29,470 nt of DNA from the IMG/VR virus record IMGVR_UViG_3300007818_000003, positions 1-29,470 of that record; one strand, written 5' to 3'. The notes below the pieces were generated by a model, which ran no database searches, was not told where the DNA came from, and worked only from the letters and a program-made list of their open reading frames with translations. This stretch comes from a virus. Positions 1,415 through 26,829 of this stretch are shown here, piece after piece (within the stretch, counting starts at the first letter, position 1; each line of letters opens with the position of its first letter). Made by a program: the position numbers and the translations under genes.

Positions 1415-1542
1415 AAATCAGAACTCAATTCAATATAAAGCTCTTTAGTAATTTCTCCAATATCAAATAAGTGTTTAACATAATGTTCATATTCAATCGG
1501 AGTCAATACTTCTTTTTGTGCTAAAATATGTTCTTTATTCAT
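1411..1542 (-). CDS. 43-aa hypothetical protein (MNKEHILAQKEVLTPIEYEHYVKHLFDIGEITKELYIELSSDL)
   Basis: SD aaaggaga lies 5-6 nt upstream. Its stop overlaps the resolvase ATG (ATGA). Fills the gap between two track ORFs. Confidence 0.6.
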   Translation of the reverse strand: MNKEHILAQKEVLTPIEYEHYVKHLFDIGEITKELYIELSSDL

Positions 1543-1546
1543 TTCT

Positions 1547-1774
1547 TTATTCTCCTTTAAAAATTAAAGCTGTATCAAGATTAATCAAACCACATTCAAC
1601 AGCATTAAGTAAGAACTCGTTAAAGTCAACAATTGACATTGTTTCTTGCTTAAATAATAGCTGTGCTTCTGTCATTTGCTTTCCTCTCTCAACTTGATAT
1701 CTTATTATAGCATACGCACTTTTTGGAGTAGTGTTATCCTCTCTTATGTAAACTATGCTTGATTTTATAGGCAT
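1547..1774 (-). CDS. 75-aa hypothetical protein, first gene of the middle operon
   Basis: Track ORF with non-repetitive composition. Lies just downstream of a TTGCAA-17-TATAAC promoter on the same strand. Weak SD (aaagag). Confidence 0.6.
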   Translation of the reverse strand: MPIKSSIVYIREDNTTPKSAYAIIRYQVERGKQMTEAQLLFKQETMSIVDFNEFLLNAVECGLINLDTALIFKGE

Positions 1775-1787
1775 TTTATGTTATACT
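1759..1787 (+). promoter_or_regulatory. Early promoter TTGATT-17-(TGt)TATACT
   Basis: -35 at 1759-1764, 17-nt spacer, extended -10 at 1779-1787. Fires toward the SD aggagg (1794-1799) and the ATG at 1812. Confidence 0.5.
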
Positions 1788-1802
1788 CTTTATAGGAGGT
1801 AA

Positions 1803-1831
1803 GTTATATATATGAAAGATAAATATTGCAA
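1803..1831 (-). promoter_or_regulatory. Divergent promoter TTGCAA-17-TATAAC for the minus-strand middle operon
   Basis: -35 at 1831-1826, 17-nt spacer, -10 at 1808-1803 (minus-strand reading). Lies inside the 5' end of the plus-strand ORF 1812-1979. Confidence 0.45.
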
Positions 1832-1979
1832 AATATGTTGTTATAAAATTGATTCTAGCTCATTTTTTATAGTTAATGAAAAAGATACAAAACAAACTTA
1901 TCACGTAGCTTGTTATACTGAAAAATACAATATACAATTTATTAAGGATAAACAAATAAAAAGGAGAAAAATTGGCTAG
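1812..1979 (+). CDS. 55-aa Cys-containing small protein (MKDKYCKICCYKIDSS...HVACYTEKY...)
   Basis: Strong SD aggagg 12 nt upstream. CxxC plus a downstream H..C suggests a zinc-ribbon-like fold. Below the track cutoff. Confidence 0.55.
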   Translation: MKDKYCKICCYKIDSSSFFIVNEKDTKQTYHVACYTEKYNIQFIKDKQIKRRKIG

Positions 1980-2160
1980 AGATAAATATCTGATGTACTT
2001 ACGACAGCAAGAATACAAAAAGCGTATTAAAATTAAAGTAGATAACACAAGAGCTAGAATGAACAGAGAGTATATGAATCAGCCAGCAATAGATAAGGAA
2101 ACATTAGAACTATGGAACAATCAGCCAGCAATACATTTTGATTTAGGGAAAAATAAATAA
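1972..2160 (+). CDS. 62-aa basic hypothetical protein (TTG start)
   Basis: SD aaggag 5 nt before TTG 1972. Followed by an intrinsic terminator at 2182-2203. Confidence 0.55.
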   Translation: MARDKYLMYLRQQEYKKRIKIKVDNTRARMNREYMNQPAIDKETLELWNNQPAIHFDLGKNK

Positions 2161-2181
2161 ATTATATTAAAAAAATAAATC

Positions 2182-2203
2182 AGCCCCTTAGGGCTTTTGT
2201 TTC
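2182..2203 (+). terminator. Rho-independent terminator (agccc-ctta-gggct plus T-rich tail)
   Basis: 5-bp GC stem with a 4-nt loop followed by ttttgttt. Confidence 0.55.
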
Positions 2204-2288
2204 ACGCTTGACCGCAATTTGACTAGAAGTGGCAGAAAGTAAGTGCATTGAGTGTCCTGTTTGTAAAGTATGGTATCAGTAAGCACAA

Positions 2289-2435
2289 TTAGCTTATTGT
2301 TTGTAAGATTTCTAAAGGAATTCCGGAGTGTTTGATAATCTCTTTATCTTGTACTGGAATTGTGAAATGTTTAACTAAATATTTTGCTAAAACAAGAATA
2401 AAGACCATTGTATAGCTATTTATGATTTGTAACAT
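2289..2435 (-). CDS. Possible 48-aa ORF with a hydrophobic N-terminus, antisense to early transcription
   Basis: ORF MLQIINSYTMVFILVLAKYLVKHF... found by hand. No convincing SD or promoter. Confidence 0.2.
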   Translation of the reverse strand: MLQIINSYTMVFILVLAKYLVKHFTIPVQDKEIIKHSGIPLEILQTIS

Positions 2436-2578
2436 ACTTTTATTATTTCAGTAAAACAATGTATAAAATGCTTGTAAATAGCGTGGTTATCAATAAAGCA
2501 AGTCTAAAAAACTTTGTGAACCTTGTGAATATTAAAAAATGGTATGATATAATAGAAGTGTAGAGAAAAGGAGAATAA

Positions 2579-2698
2579 ATGGAAGATAAAGAATTTTTGA
2601 TTAAAAAAGTAGAAATATTAGAATCAGCAATTAAACAAATGGCAGTGATTCAATATGAACTGGATAAAAAGCTAGGAGAACTAGAGGGATTAGAATAA
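2579..2698 (+). CDS. 39-aa helical small protein (MEDKEFLIKKVEILESAIKQMAVIQYELDKKLGELEGLE)
   Basis: SD aaaggaga 6 nt upstream. A promoter-like ttgtga ... tggtatgatataat lies just upstream (2523-2560). Confidence 0.55.
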   Translation: MEDKEFLIKKVEILESAIKQMAVIQYELDKKLGELEGLE

Positions 2699-2762
2699 TT
2701 TACATAACACATGATAACGCAAAGTGTAAAATGTAATGTGTTAAAATATAAGTATATAATAC

Positions 2763-2791
2763 TTGACAAGTGAAAATGTCTATGTTATTAT
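2763..2791 (+). promoter_or_regulatory. Near-consensus promoter TTGACA-17-(TGt)TATTAT firing into ORF-free sequence
   Basis: -35 at 2763-2768, exact 17-nt spacer, extended -10 at 2783-2791. No ORF longer than 12 codons for the next ~400 nt on this strand. Confidence 0.6.
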
Positions 2792-2797
2792 TATCTA

Positions 2798-3144
2798 TGT
2801 AATTGAATATATAACCCATAGGCGGTTGAGGTACGAAAGTATAGCGATGTGATAAACATCAAAACGAGCTGAGTAAGCTATGAAGTCGAGAATACCTGAT
2901 TACATAAACCCAATGTAACTCTATAAGAGATAGGTATTTAAGTTTAAGGTGTCTTAGTTTTTATACTATTTGAAAGCCGTTGTTTGACTTACTTACTGAA
3001 ATTGCAGCATTTGCTGACAGGTTGTGCTGATTAGTTTATGCCAATTCACAGCACGTAAAATTAAATGAGCGGAGTAATTACACTAAATTAGAGCTTACGA
3101 CAAAAAACAAATTAACTTTCAAGCAAGAATCTCTAGTAATTACT
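2798..3144 (+). ncRNA. Candidate non-coding transcript and/or replication-origin region
   Basis: Promoter-proximal and ORF-free. Hairpins: gatgt/acatc 2846-2860, ttacat/atgtaa 2900-2918, gtgctg/cagcac 3024-3054. Direct repeats: agtaattac at 3073 and 3135. Ends are undefined. Confidence 0.3.
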
Positions 3145-3168
3145 TGACGGGGGGAAAAAACTTAATGT

Positions 3169-3197
3169 TTGACAAATACAAAAAGAAATGATAAGAT
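3169..3197 (+). promoter_or_regulatory. Early promoter TTGACA-17-(TGa)TAAGAT with upstream box TTAATGTTTGACA
   Basis: -35 at 3169-3174, 17-nt spacer, -10 at 3192-3197. The same 13-nt box recurs at 8465-8477 and 9478-9490. Confidence 0.65.
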
Positions 3198-3224
3198 ATA
3201 AATATAATAAAGGAGAAACAAAAA

Positions 3225-3449
3225 ATGAAAAATAAATGTATTAAGTGTCAGCAAATAAGAAAAGCAAGTGGTGTAAGTTATTTAAAGTGCTGTAAATGCA
3301 AACAAAAAGCTAGTGATGAAAGAAAGAAAAATAAAAAGAATAAAAGCGAAATTGCTAAAACTAATGAGGAACTAAGAAAAATATCTAAACGATTAAATCA
3401 AGATAGTATAAACAAATTCATAAAAGAAAGAAATGGAATTAAGGCTTGA
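3225..3449 (+). CDS. 74-aa very basic CxxC...CxxC small protein
   Basis: SD aaaggaga. CIKC...CCKC motifs followed by a Lys-rich tail. Confidence 0.7.
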   Translation: MKNKCIKCQQIRKASGVSYLKCCKCKQKASDERKKNKKNKSEIAKTNEELRKISKRLNQDSINKFIKERNGIKA

Positions 3450-3467
3450 CTTTTCAAGTCTTTTTTG
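3445..3467 (+). terminator. Hairpin plus T-run (cttga-cttt-tcaag, tctttttt) overlapping the next promoter
   Basis: 5-bp stem followed by T6. Overlaps the stop codon of 3225-3449 and the -35 of the next promoter. Confidence 0.4.
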
Positions 3468-3474
3468 TTATTAT
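3446..3474 (+). promoter_or_regulatory. Early promoter TTGACT-17-(TGt)TATTAT
   Basis: -35 at 3446-3451, 17-nt spacer, -10 at 3469-3474. Confidence 0.55.
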
Positions 3475-3492
3475 ATACTAAAGGAGAAATAA

Positions 3493-4389
3493 ATGACTAA
3501 CATATTTGAAAAAGTACAGACAGCCAAGCACTTAAAAGAGCGTGAAGACTTAATAAATTTAAAAGATGACTGGCTTATTGATACTTTAATGCCAAGTTCG
3601 CAAGCTGGAATATTAGTAGCTCCGTTTAAGTCGTTTAAAAGCTCTCTAGCAATGCACATGGCTTTAATGGTATCGCAAGGACTACCTTTTTTTGGTTATG
3701 ATACAAAGCGGAGCAAGACACTATACATCGACAATGAGGACACGGACAGAGAACTAAACAAAAGGCTTAGAAATAAAGACACTGCACCAGAAGACTTGCA
3801 TTTCTTAACAGGTGGCGAGTTTATGCTTGATGATTCGCACCACATGAATTTATTGTATGAGTACATCAAAGAAAATGATATCAAGTTCGTTATTTTAGAC
3901 AACCTTATGACAATGCTAAGAAATGGAGATATTATCTACGGTAAAGACTTCGAGCCAATGCTTAGAAGAATTACACGCTTGAAGTTGCTCTTTCAAGATG
4001 TAACTTTTCTACTAGTAGCTCATGCAAACAAGTCAGCTTATGCAAACTCAATGGACGATAAAGCCTATATGGTAAAGCCTAGCGATGCCTTAGGTGGTTC
4101 TACTCTTACAGCTTGGGCGGAGTTTATGCTGATGTTAAGCCCTAAACGTGGAAAACATAACGACTTCTCTAAGCTATCAGTAAAAGCGCGTGGTTACCAG
4201 TTTGATGATGATTTAAACTTTTCTTATGTTGATTCAGTATTTACTTGTGTCAATAAATCAAAAAAAGAACCTGATAGTGAACTAGTTGAAAAAGTAAAAA
4301 GGGAAACTCCTAAAGAAGTAACGAAAGAATCGGCACAGGCTTTCTTAGACTTAGCTAAAGAGCAAGGAAAGGTAACAGAAAATGATTAA
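3493..4389 (+). CDS. RecA-fold ATPase (AAA_25/RepA-like), putative replication/recombination protein with an atypical P-loop
   Basis: GILVAPFKSFKSSLAMHMALMV aligns by eye to the G..V.PGGAGKS.LAL..A P-loop region. Walker B-like FVILDNL and LLVAHANK are present. SD aaaggaga. Confidence 0.7.
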   Translation: MTNIFEKVQTAKHLKEREDLINLKDDWLIDTLMPSSQAGILVAPFKSFKSSLAMHMALMVSQGLPFFGYDTKRSKTLYIDNEDTDRELNKRLRNKDTAPEDLHFLTGGEFMLDDSHHMNLLYEYIKENDIKFVILDNLMTMLRNGDIIYGKDFEPMLRRITRLKLLFQDVTFLLVAHANKSAYANSMDDKAYMVKPSDALGGSTLTAWAEFMLMLSPKRGKHNDFSKLSVKARGYQFDDDLNFSYVDSVFTCVNKSKKEPDSELVEKVKRETPKEVTKESAQAFLDLAKEQGKVTEND

Positions 4390-24001: not shown

Positions 24002-25183
24002 TTATGATACTGTAATTACTGCACCAGCATTATAAGTTTCAACATGTCCGCTTGTTAGTGTTTCAACCAAAATCATGTTGCTATTAGTTTTCCATTCAAA
24101 GGCATCAACTTTAGTAAGGTCTTGCATGTCAATGTGATATTTTTGGTCTACCAATACAGTAGGTTTGAGTGCTTTTGAACCTGTATAGACAATAATTTCA
24201 TCTACTCCAACTTCAGAAGCAATTTCAGCGTCATCATTTTTAATACGAACGTTAGCATTTGCAGTTGCTTGACGTAACTCATCTAACAAGGCTTTACGGT
24301 CTTCTGTTTTAACAATCAAATAACGACGTCCAGCAGTAGGGCGAACAAAGTCAACCGCTTCTTCAATAGCGTCAGCAAATGGAGTTTTGCCAGCTGATTT
24401 GGCTTTTGTAGTAATTTTTTTGATTTTTTTAGCGTCTGCTTCTTTGTCAATTGATTTAAAGCCGTTTGTTCCGTCTCCCTCAACAAGTGCAAGGTCAACA
24501 ATTTTGTTTACAATAGCTTGTGTAAGTTCTGCTACAATCAAGTTGTAAAGTTCAGAATATGACATTTGAAGTCGTTTAACGCGTTCAGCAAGTGATTGCA
24601 ATTTGTAAACCATTACAGGTTCAAGAGTATCAATAGTGAGTGTGGCTGCCTGCTCTGTTTTTGTTTGTCCGTCTTTGTGGACTTGTGCTTCATTTGATGA
24701 ATCAAAAGAGCGTGATACGAGCAAAGCACCGACATTTGTAACATGGAAGACTTTGAATACTGGGTTAGTATTTAGCAAAGCTGTGTTGATTGATTCAACC
24801 AATTTACGTGGAAGTTGGAAAGTTGTATCTGTGATAGTTACACCATTTTCAGCAAGTTTTGCGTTCCAAGCGTTTTTAATTTCTGACTTTCCAGAGTTCT
24901 TTTTCAATACATCAAAAAATTCTGTTACAGCGTTTTGTGATTCAATAAAGTTTGTCATTTTAGCTTTTCCTTTTGGTTTTTCTTCCTGTGCGTTAAGTTC
25001 GTTCTCAATTTTGATAATTTCAATTGAATTTTCTGAAAGTGTTTTTTCCAATTCTTGTACTTTAGGCAAGTCTTCAATTGCATTTTTTACTTCAAAGCCA
25101 CTAATTTTAGATTTTAAAGATACGTTATTTTCTTTAAGTTCTGCCAAGCGGTTCTGTTTTTCGATTAAATCAGGTTTATTCAT
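24002..25183 (-). CDS. Major capsid protein (HK97 fold) with an N-terminal coiled-coil scaffold-like (delta) domain
   Basis: No separate scaffold gene between protease and capsid. The first ~90 aa are coiled coil. Start refined to MNKPDLIEKQ, overlapping the protease stop. Confidence 0.88.
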   Translation of the reverse strand: MNKPDLIEKQNRLAELKENNVSLKSKISGFEVKNAIEDLPKVQELEKTLSENSIEIIKIENELNAQEEKPKGKAKMTNFIESQNAVTEFFDVLKKNSGKSEIKNAWNAKLAENGVTITDTTFQLPRKLVESINTALLNTNPVFKVFHVTNVGALLVSRSFDSSNEAQVHKDGQTKTEQAATLTIDTLEPVMVYKLQSLAERVKRLQMSYSELYNLIVAELTQAIVNKIVDLALVEGDGTNGFKSIDKEADAKKIKKITTKAKSAGKTPFADAIEEAVDFVRPTAGRRYLIVKTEDRKALLDELRQATANANVRIKNDDAEIASEVGVDEIIVYTGSKALKPTVLVDQKYHIDMQDLTKVDAFEWKTNSNMILVETLTSGHVETYNAGAVITVS

Positions 25184-25712
25184 ATTTCTTTTTAATATCC
25201 TCAATTTCTTTCAAAGCGTTACGGCTTTCAATAATTTTGTTGCGTTCTTCTGTGAGTTCTTCGCCTAAGGCATTTTGAATAAATTTTGCGTTAGGGTCTG
25301 CTGGTACTGAAACAAGAGAAATCTCTTTAAATTGTGCTTTGTTTACAACTAGAGCGTCATTATCATCAAAAGTATAATCTGTGATGTAATAGGCAATTGA
25401 TAGTGAATCAAACGCTCCGTTTTCAACAGCCTTGTTAATGTTTGGTGCATTGTCATAAAGCGTAAAGTCAGTCAGGTATTTATTAGAAGCCAAATCATAG
25501 TAAACTTTTGCGTCCCCGATGACTTCGCTAGATCCAGTACCATGTTCATATAGCAATGGATATCGTTCTCTAGCAAACTCAATACAGTTAGGAGTCAAGA
25601 TAATACCATTAAGGTTCTCTACACCAACTTCTGACCCAATACCTTGGAACGACTTAGAACCGTCCTCGTTTTCAGTCACTTTAATTTCAGCACTATTGGT
25701 TATTAGTTTCAT
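25176..25712 (-). CDS. Prohead maturation protease (HK97/S78 family)
   Basis: 178 aa between the portal and capsid genes. PLLYEHG and ISLVSVPADPNA segments are typical of the family. Confidence 0.85.
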   Translation of the reverse strand: MKLITNSAEIKVTENEDGSKSFQGIGSEVGVENLNGIILTPNCIEFARERYPLLYEHGTGSSEVIGDAKVYYDLASNKYLTDFTLYDNAPNINKAVENGAFDSLSIAYYITDYTFDDNDALVVNKAQFKEISLVSVPADPNAKFIQNALGEELTEERNKIIESRNALKEIEDIKKKYE

Positions 25713-26829
25713 CTGTGCTTGTTACGTCCTTTCTACTGCCTTGTAGGTCACTTAGATTTTTAACAGCAACTGCATTAAGGTTAGTTAGGTAAATATCTCC
25801 ACCCTCGATTGGTTGCTCGCCCATTTTAACAAGAAGTTGATTCTGTGTAAAAATAGGAGCGTTAATATTTTCATGATACAAGTCAATTAATTCTTTCAAA
25901 GTTGCAAACTTGAATAGCTGGTTATCTACGATTATGCGTTCATAATATAAATTATCCTTATTTATTCGTCTGCGGCTTGTTGAAATCAGTTTATAAGTCA
26001 GTTCCTTTTCAAGTTGAATCAGTAAAGGAATGATAGTAGAGTTGTAAAAATAAATTTGTTGTTCTTGCGTAGCAGTACCAAGCAAAATATTTTCATTCAT
26101 AAAGTAACCTGTCAAAAGTTCCGATTTAATAAGGTCAATTTCATCTTTATTTAAAACAGAATAATCTTTTTTAAGTTCTACAATTTCCGTCTTGTTATCA
26201 ACTGGCGTCAAACCGTTGTAACTCGAACCCTCTTGCATATTCTTTATTGTTGTTAAGGCTTTTTCTCGATACTCCTGTGTATTATCAATGTCAAGAAAGG
26301 CATTAATTTTCAACAAGCCACGCAATTTACCTTGTTCCAGCTTAGTTTGAATACTAGCTAGAGCATTGTCTAAAATACTTGTATCCTCATTGATATAAAA
26401 AGGACTGATAAGCCTTACTAATTCTTCAGGTTTATATTCTTTTTCATCATTAGCAAGCAGTAAGTCTGCTAGATCGCCCGTTTCACTGTCAAATATAGGG
26501 TACAGGTCAACATAGCGTGTGCATAGCAACTTTTTAATTACTTTCTGCCAAAACTCCATGCTATTGTGTTCGCCCTTAGGGCTCCAATTGAGGACCTCAT
26601 CTAAATCAGAACCTGCCTTACTAATCAAAGTATCAGAACCAACATCAGACTTTTTATATTTAACATGATTAAATTCTACTTTTGTTATTTCATTAGCGAT
26701 TTTATTATGAATGTTAGTCACAAAGGCACTTGTATATTCTACCGCTTCGTTTTGCCACGCTGTGACTCTTTGAGTATCATTGTTTAGTTTTCCACGTGAA
26801 AATGATACCACTTTTCCGAATAAGTTCAA
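25693..26829 (-). CDS. Portal protein (378 aa)
   Basis: Position after TerL/HNH and before the protease. Size is typical of HK97-type portals. Confidence 0.88.
   Translation of the reverse strand: MNLFGKVVSFSRGKLNNDTQRVTAWQNEAVEYTSAFVTNIHNKIANEITKVEFNHVKYKKSDVGSDTLISKAGSDLDEVLNWSPKGEHNSMEFWQKVIKKLLCTRYVDLYPIFDSETGDLADLLLANDEKEYKPEELVRLISPFYINEDTSILDNALASIQTKLEQGKLRGLLKINAFLDIDNTQEYREKALTTIKNMQEGSSYNGLTPVDNKTEIVELKKDYSVLNKDEIDLIKSELLTGYFMNENILLGTATQEQQIYFYNSTIIPLLIQLEKELTYKLISTSRRRINKDNLYYERIIVDNQLFKFATLKELIDLYHENINAPIFTQNQLLVKMGEQPIEGGDIYLTNLNAVAVKNLSDLQGSRKDVTSTDETNNQ

Follow-up and report, generated by a model that had tools for sequence, protein, structure and literature searches.

What is encoded by a nearly gene-free stretch at the head of the early region of a lactococcal phage genome, where a promoter points into sequence without genes? 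We address this question for IMG/VR record IMGVR_UViG_3300007818_000003, of which positions 1 to 29,470 (hereafter the window, 29,470 nt in all) represent a Skunavirus (936-group) genome in the reverse complement of its customary orientation. The region under study (2161-3224) is matched by 374 phage records, every one of them a Lactococcus Skunavirus, the closest being svUCCL624 (96.9%) and P008 (95.1%). A first-pass annotation, made from the letters of the window, had described this region as a coding-poor island, and the description holds: from the intrinsic terminator (2182-2203) to the ATG of the next gene at 3225, a single open reading frame (ORF), that at 2579-2698, both carries a good ribosome-binding site and is conserved in relatives. 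The same annotation had envisaged a transcribed replication origin modelled on that of phage c2, and this idea now gains support from homology to the 923-type origin of the genus Ceduovirus and from an identical layout. We consider it likely that approximately 2763-3197 constitutes the lactococcal transcribed origin of this phage, a diverged homologue of the 923-type origin, as suggested by its relationship to the experimentally tested origin of phage p6/4, its layout, a conserved RNA structure, purifying selection, synteny with the origin of phage sk1, and the replaceability of the cassette.

Two early promoters bracket the cassette, and the interval between them contains no ORF that reaches 100 bp. 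The first, a PE1-like promoter on the plus strand (2763-2791; TTGACA, a 17-nt spacer, and TATTAT with an upstream TG; 11 of 12 positions), had been picked out in the first reading and proved to be the top sigma-70 match in 1500-3700, an interval in which the total count of promoter-like matches is at the chance level (13 against 12.8 expected). Its predicted start lies at about 2798-2800, its -10 region and AATTGAATA leader resemble those of PE1 in c2 and p6/4, and the leader as far as ..GTAATTGAATA (about 2809) is common to Skunaviruses with a different cassette downstream. Next comes what we term the type A cassette (2798-3154, plus strand; aligned core 2840-3154), the putative template for about 355 nt of untranslated RNA, followed by a second, PE2-like early promoter (3169-3197, plus strand; TTGACA, 17 nt, TAAGAT, with TG; 10 of 12 positions), which is predicted to drive the first downstream gene. 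The earlier statement that no frame downstream of the first promoter exceeds 12 codons comes close for ATG starts, the longest ATG-initiated frame among the five plus-strand ORFs listed in 2798-3224 having 12 codons; with any ATG, GTG, or TTG start, the maxima are 16 codons on the plus and 19 on the minus strand. By reading the sequence, we saw nothing like a Shine-Dalgarno sequence before the small ATG ORF at 2880.

Comparison of this untranslated stretch with Ceduovirus genomes brought its relationship to light. Window 2840-3154 aligns with the 923-type origin of p6/4 (the Ceduovirus phage vB_Llc_bIBBp6/4) at 65.7% identity over 335 nt (E = 7e-26, local alignment), with a local alignment score of 71 as against 11.8 +/- 1.6 in dinucleotide shuffles (z = 37), and comparable homology was found for 37203, STA206, and metagenomic variants. 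Standard blastn, run at word size 11, missed the link in both directions, and only a search with a word size of 7 and scores of +1/-1 recovered it. The shared features extend beyond the sequence itself: eleven helices occur in the same order, the loop of a C-rich hairpin reads AAACCC, the blocks GACAGGTTGTG, GTTTATGCCA, and CAGAATCTCTA are invariant in both, and in each case a non-coding stretch with a terminal G run is accompanied by two early promoters. The type A cassette differs in residing in another genus, in having an unrelated region past the G run together with an unrelated second promoter, and in an apparent extra segment of about 50 nt at its 5' end that holds two hairpins. MAFFT left this segment (about 2812-2866) unaligned or misaligned to the Ceduovirus homologue, and it looks like a Skunavirus-specific insertion. 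Its hairpins at 2846-2860 and 2830-2842, the latter with a GAAA loop, are present as first noted, but can be compared only within near-identical sequences. Farther upstream, comparison of 2161-2800 with Ceduovirus genomes gave nothing convincing.

The Ceduovirus counterparts have been studied by experiment. Their origins fall into three types (c2, bIL67, and 923), with identity above 90% within a type and none that is significant between types, and promoter PE1 yields PE1-T, a non-coding RNA that is thought to initiate replication (PMC7150918). Origin fragments of p6/4, 27, 94p4, and c2 sustain plasmid replication in L. lactis with no phage protein supplied, and chimeric Ceduovirus origins are non-functional (PMC7150918). 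With the c2 origin, the type A cassette shares a similar -10 box, the AATTGAATA leader, a G run (G7 in c2) before PE2, and the arrangement of an untranslated, promoter-driven RNA within the origin, whereas the interior is without detectable similarity, the c2-type interior being found in Ceduovirus only. As a side observation, three Ceduovirus contigs from the metagenomic and IMG/VR sets (L059, L090, and L095) carry a 923-type origin that is only 88.7% identical to that of p6/4, and is thus more divergent than the within-type range reported earlier (PMC7150918).

The homology ends at a G6A6 tract (3149-3160), which the first-pass annotation had pointed out and which has a G run at the equivalent place in Ceduovirus origins: G8-9 in the 923-type, G7 in the c2-type, and GGGGCTAGGGGCT in the bIL67-type, as also in the second Skunavirus cassette described below. 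Its first G residues can pair with the CCU at 2895-2897, closing the whole fold; the pairs 2895-2898/3148-3151 are invariant and hence lack covariation support. We infer that the tract is the site of RNA-DNA hybrid formation or the 3' end of the RNA.

The 34% divergence between the genera makes a covariation test of the RNA structure possible, and covariance folding, which had been proposed at the outset, bore out the conservation of structure. In the wider alignment of Skunavirus and Ceduovirus copies with metagenomic variants, 57 consensus pairs form 11 helices with 99.9% of the cells paired, and 22 of the pairs are changed on both sides, as against 0-2 when the structure is slid. RNAalifold on a structure-blind MAFFT alignment gave 74 pairs, 25 of them changed on both sides, and even a structure predicted from the window alone showed 18 double-changed pairs, compared with 7.6 +/- 2.0 in shuffles (reached in 0 of 500) and 0-3 in slid versions. 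The long-range helices of the window-only structure were not conserved; those at 2900-2918, 2919-2929, and 3072-3081/3136-3145 were. When each genus was folded separately, the same architecture emerged domain by domain. Folding favours the plus strand (-46.8 kcal/mol) over the minus strand (-38.1 kcal/mol), and several substitutions yield G-U pairs on the plus strand only, both of which fit an RNA made from the promoter at 2763. Folding of the window segment by segment was sensitive to the choice of segment borders and was discarded.

Starting from the 5' side of the plus strand, the conserved structure opens with two adjacent hairpins in 2900-2929 (2900-2905/2913-2918, bearing the C-rich loop AAACCC(A/C), and 2919-2921/2927-2929), in which 5 of 6 and 2 of 3 pairs, respectively, are double-changed between the genera and 99-100% of the cells are paired. 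A long irregular helix (2933-2997) follows, in which 2933-2944/2986-2997 encloses 2948-2949/2977-2978 and 2955-2959/2965-2968; 7 of 10 pairs are double-changed and all cells are paired. The next domain (3002-3055) comprises the hairpins 3002-3007/3014-3020 and 3023-3029/3049-3055, the loop of the second containing the invariant GUUUAUGCCA. Each genus folded alone gives here the same two-hairpin architecture from different stem sequences; a C-G pair is replaced by U-A at 3008/3013 within type A, a C-G to U-A replacement is also seen within the Ceduovirus clade, and in phage 712 the substituted positions form G-U wobbles, but on the plus strand only. Finally, in the 3' domain (3072-3145), a 10-bp helix (3072-3081/3136-3145) encloses 3090-3096/3125-3134, with 3 of 10 pairs double-changed, all cells paired, and a U-A to G-C switch within the Ceduovirus clade. 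Among the hairpins named in the first reading, those at 2900-2918 and 3024-3054 are thus present and carry compensatory changes. The two copies of AGTAATTAC (3073 and 3135), which had been taken for a direct repeat, are both there but are in fact the two arms of the helix 3072-3081/3136-3145, and a proposed imperfect repeat of 2996-3008 with 3083-3094 was not recovered by a repeat tool, and its second copy is not kept in the Ceduovirus homologue. An Rfam/Infernal scan, likewise proposed at the outset, brought no RNA family at the locus: Rfam 15 at gathering thresholds over the whole window returned only two tRNAs, and a permissive scan of 2150-3480 gave best E values of at least 1.6, far below gathering scores.

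The type A stretch (2795-3165) occurs in 54 phage records, full length in all of them and 95-99.7% identical, and is annotated in none. Metagenomic copies are 95-98.6% identical, and one IMG/VR contig (L019, 404-765) carries a copy at 93% that has lost 20 nt and with them the 5' strand of the helix at 2933-2944, and so represents either a defective variant or a fault of assembly. Among type A phages, the mean identity of the cassette is 97.6%, as against 92-93% in the adjacent ORFs and 85% further downstream; the cassette is under strong purifying selection. Scans of metagenomes and IMG/VR extended both clades with further variants, yet revealed neither intermediates between them nor new hosts; one match (L067) had no similarity outside the search pattern and looks like chance. 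A search of one-per-species bacterial genomes with an 18-mer gave five matches in unrelated bacteria, with none in Lactococcus, which is compatible with chance. No plasmid matched 2700-3224, and there is consequently no link to plasmid origins or antitoxin RNAs.

At the same locus, other Skunaviruses carry other modules. In phages such as P1532, ASCC465, and 16W23, the promoter and leader are shared (near-identical up to 2809), followed by an unrelated, ORF-free stretch of the same length and then by TTAATGTTTGACAAAT, the motif of the second promoter, which is common to both kinds of phage. This type B cassette (about 370 nt; 2525-2875 in P1532) is the majority form, with 233 Skunavirus records or four times the frequency of type A, and is unannotated in all but a few of the sampled records. 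It occupies the same locus as type A with the same flanking promoter, leader, and length, whereas beyond the flanks the interiors are unrelated. Sensitive local comparison relates it to the bIL67-type origin at about 70% identity (E = 1e-51 to 5e-56), and it matched 34 Ceduovirus records (genomes of about 22 kb) at about 75%, in the intergenic region that houses the replication origin. A third module, that of sk1 with ORF47, is found in 86 Skunavirus records. Since 54, 233, and 86 account for approximately all 374 records, these are three alternative modules at one locus, and on our reading the type A cassette is one of three origin modules that exclude one another in Skunavirus. The 923-like and bIL67-like cassettes thus occur in both genera, the c2-type in Ceduovirus only, and the ORF47 module in Skunavirus only. 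Type B phages have other small genes in place of the gene that follows the type A cassette; in P1532 the replacement at 2931-3092 is an unannotated 53-aa hydrophobic ORF with a good ribosome-binding site.

We propose that replication from the type A cassette proceeds in the following manner. Host RNA polymerase would initiate at the predicted early promoter (2763-2791) and synthesize an RNA of about 355 nt, non-coding by its sequence and the likely equivalent of PE1-T; an origin of the Ceduovirus kind is expected to give an abundant untranslated transcript from its first promoter, which Rakonjac's work of 2003 is said to have put at 300-400 nt. This RNA would fold into the helices 2900-2918, 2919-2929, 2933-2997, 3002-3020, 3023-3055, and 3072-3145, and would then end at, or stay hybridised near, the G6 tract (3149-3154), thereby opening the DNA or priming its synthesis by host enzymes. 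The promoter at 3169-3197 would subsequently express the downstream early genes. The model draws on an analogy with the RNA II preprimer of ColE1, which is also a promoter-driven, folded, untranslated RNA of a few hundred nucleotides with a G-rich segment that stabilises an RNA-DNA hybrid; the start of synthesis by host enzymes without a replicon-encoded initiator is a possible further parallel. The two differ in having no sequence relation, and we saw no evidence here of processing by RNase H, of an RNA I acting as antisense, or of a protein resembling Rom.

Several points weigh against this proposal. The transcript, its 3' end, the priming, and the origin activity are all deduced from sequence and analogy, and our search of the literature found no experiment on this phage or any other type A Skunavirus. 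No terminator-like site was found in the scan between 2798 and 3169, and a discrete 355-nt RNA is accordingly not predicted by sequence features. The folding energy of the 368-nt stretch is that of shuffled sequence on both strands (z = +0.2); the first-pass description of the stretch as structured is therefore upheld by covariation and not by energy. As the covariation comes essentially from two clades, each pair represents approximately one event. The location also differs: the Ceduovirus origin sits between divergent early and late promoters, whereas some 1 kb of the early region precedes the type A cassette, the divergent promoters here being at about 1775-1811, with the ORFs of 1812-2160, a terminator, and a 39-aa gene intervening. 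Lastly, sk1, the only Skunavirus with a mapped origin, shares just the core at 2138-2303 with the window, and this core could thus be the genus-wide determinant.

This last point introduces the alternative that survives best, though we regard it as rather unlikely: the true origin could be the conserved core upstream (2200-2303, about 104 nt), perhaps with the adjoining spacer, and the type A cassette a separately selected non-coding RNA gene or leader, acquired from Ceduovirus or shared with it and possibly acting in trans on targets of host or phage. Of the whole island, only the core is found in each of the 374 Skunavirus records, matching at 87-100% (sk1, p2, and jj50 included) whatever follows it. 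It holds an imperfect direct repeat of 29 nt (2238-2266 with 2278-2306) and falls inside the sk1 fragment 24861-25861, annotated in GenBank as a putative rep_origin; the minimal sk1 origin reportedly "contained a number of direct repeats", according to an abstract by Chandry of 1997. The statement in the first reading that the sk1 origin maps to such a place was therefore sound as to position, the sk1 feature being syntenic, but the sequence similarity is confined to window 2138-2303 (84.6% identity). Window 2303-3431 has no match in sk1, which has ORF47 and ORF46 there, and a homologue of ORF47 (231 aa) was found in the window at neither the DNA nor the translated level. Both modules lie past the E7 terminator and before the helicase gene, with a similar -35 context of promoter E1, whereas the place behind that promoter, non-coding in the window, is taken in sk1 by ORF47, which codes for a protein. 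An sk1-type origin is recognised by promoter E1 followed by ORF47, which lies partly within the minimal origin, and by similarity to 24861-25861; the window cassette has neither, and the sk1 origin in turn shows no similarity to the interiors of Ceduovirus origins. The sk1 fragment includes a promoter and a transcribed part, and so offers no argument for a core that works independently of transcription. Conserved RNA structure would be equally expected of a trans-acting RNA, but neither a target nor a partner was found for one, nor an Rfam family, and the homologous Ceduovirus cassette suffices by itself as a plasmid origin (PMC7150918). We favour the transcribed origin within the cassette for these reasons, and consider that the core may be an accessory or auxiliary element of it.

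Other kinds of origin were also considered. No iteron array of three or more direct repeats was found, only two-copy families and a trivial 9-nt, 2.2-copy array at 2510-2529, and neither the features of an iteron/replisome-organiser origin of the kind in the P335 phages Tuc2009 and TP901-1 nor an initiator gene was present. The cumulative GC skew has its turning point near 2 kb; since gene orientation switches there as well, we do not treat it as evidence.

The absence of a terminator-like site from 2798 to the gene at 3225 makes read-through likely, and a conserved structure is also what one would expect if the cassette were a long structured 5' leader controlling the early genes from 3225, including that of the helicase, with no role in replication. 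We hold this to be improbable: the downstream gene has its own conserved promoter (3169-3197), the gene that follows varies among phages with the same cassette, and the cassette homologue is a proven origin (PMC7150918). The helicase is equally uncoupled from the cassette. We had considered a linkage between cassette type and helicase allele and rejected it, as in bIBB29 a type A cassette goes together with the 316-aa allele, the one that most Skunaviruses have; this lack of linkage is what one would expect of an origin independent of a cognate phage initiator. The helicase-type ATPase of the window (298 aa; early gene at 3493-4389) belongs to an allele common to P008 and 712, which is 43-44% identical to the 316-aa allele and, at 46%, equally close to Ceduovirus helicases.

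Neither the small regulatory RNA nor the anti-defence RNA raised by the first-pass annotation found positive support. Structured phage RNAs activate some cyclic-oligonucleotide-based antiphage signalling systems (CBASS), and the RNA could accordingly be pictured as an anti-defence decoy, or as a trigger sensed by host defences. Circumstantially, sk1 mutants that escape a lactococcal type II CBASS map to the nearby intergenic PE7/PM promoter region (PMC12184496), and three alternative cassettes could reflect diversifying selection. The escape mutations, however, lie at PE7/PM (window about 1775-1811), outside the cassette, and sk1 lacks the cassette altogether; no similarity to plasmid-borne antitoxin RNAs was seen, and each cassette type is extremely conserved rather than diversifying, which makes a defence-related role very improbable. 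That the stretch is a decayed gene or a neutral spacer with chance hairpins, as its AT-richness and near-zero folding z-score might suggest, is scarcely credible and already contradicted by its conservation above that of the flanking genes and by 22 compensatory pairs between genera, and tblastx against sk1 and p2 gave no protein-level trace of a former gene.

The element is thus of a kind already known, whose 923-type homologue in Skunavirus is unannotated in all 54 records. Our search of the literature found no paper on this homologue; an earlier description is possible, especially of the easily detected pair of type B and the bIL67-type. The Skunavirus origin has been mapped in one phage only, sk1, and the corresponding gap in P008-like phages can now be assigned to a tested origin family, with a covariation-supported structure available for the presumed origin RNA. 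As a speculation in which we place little confidence, the two genera of virulent lactococcal phages could share a pool of interchangeable, host-dependent, RNA-primed origin cassettes with ColE1-like preprimer RNAs, in which the C-rich hairpin loop and the terminal G run would together act as a hybrid switch; we judge the pool and the switch jointly at this low level. If this were true, the cassette type might act as a determinant of replicon "incompatibility" or competition in co-infection, or as a target or trigger of host defence. Phage failure in dairy fermentations is due mainly to Skunaviruses. Origin-titration constructs for resistance (phage-encoded resistance, Per), origin typing of dairy phages, and the manner in which a non-coding transcript starts the replication of lactococcal phages all become testable.

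The remaining parts of the island and its surroundings are as follows. The terminator at 2182-2203 (plus strand; AGCCC-CTTA-GGGCT with a T run, from the terminator scan) is the homologue of the sk1 feature annotated as "putative terminator for transcript E7", and ends a short plus-strand unit, the PE7 transcript, with ORFs at 1812-1979 and 1972-2160. The first of these (55 aa) contains CxxC motifs and runs into the second (62 aa), overlapping its TTG start; in most type A relatives the match covers only about half of 1812-2160, and the 55-aa ORF is seemingly a rare variable insert. Just 5' of the terminator and core, svUCCL624 (2097-2513), ASCC465 (1930-2346), and p2 (1987-2478) have an HNH endonuclease gene, which the window lacks at about 2160.

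Between the core and the 39-aa gene lies a variable, non-coding mosaic spacer (2304-2578) with several recombination breakpoints, the matches stopping at about 2303, 2337, 2375, 2449, or 2575 depending on the phage. On the minus strand, the records of P008 (orf51), P1532, and bIL170 (orfO) annotate a hypothetical protein at 2289-2435. In 712, svUCCL624, and many relatives from metagenomes, however, stops, frameshifts, or deletions break this ORF, which is probably an annotation artefact over conserved non-coding DNA and not a gene. The 39-aa early protein (2579-2698, plus strand; P008 orf50, bIL170 e2) has a start preceded by AAAGGAGAATAA, is 87-95% identical among phages of either cassette type, and matches PHROG 2413 (E = 3e-28); its gene lies outside the origin cassette.

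The first gene past the cassette (3225-3449, plus strand) codes for a lysine-rich protein of 74 aa (P008 orf49, PHROG 7549; from the ORF list). A plus-strand terminator at 3441-3462, found by the promoter and terminator scan with a hairpin of AAGGCTTGAC TTTT CAAGTCTT and a T run, overlaps the -35 box of the early promoter that follows (3446-3474), so that one sequence both ends a transcript and starts another; the segment 3441-3474 is 94-100% identical in sk1 and the type B phages compared. On the other side of the island, the minus strand carries the middle genes (932-1774), including that of a Holliday-junction resolvase, and, near the end of the middle/late side, genes for tRNA-Pro (UGG; 355-426) and tRNA-Trp (CCA; 480-552), recovered by both ARAGORN and Rfam.

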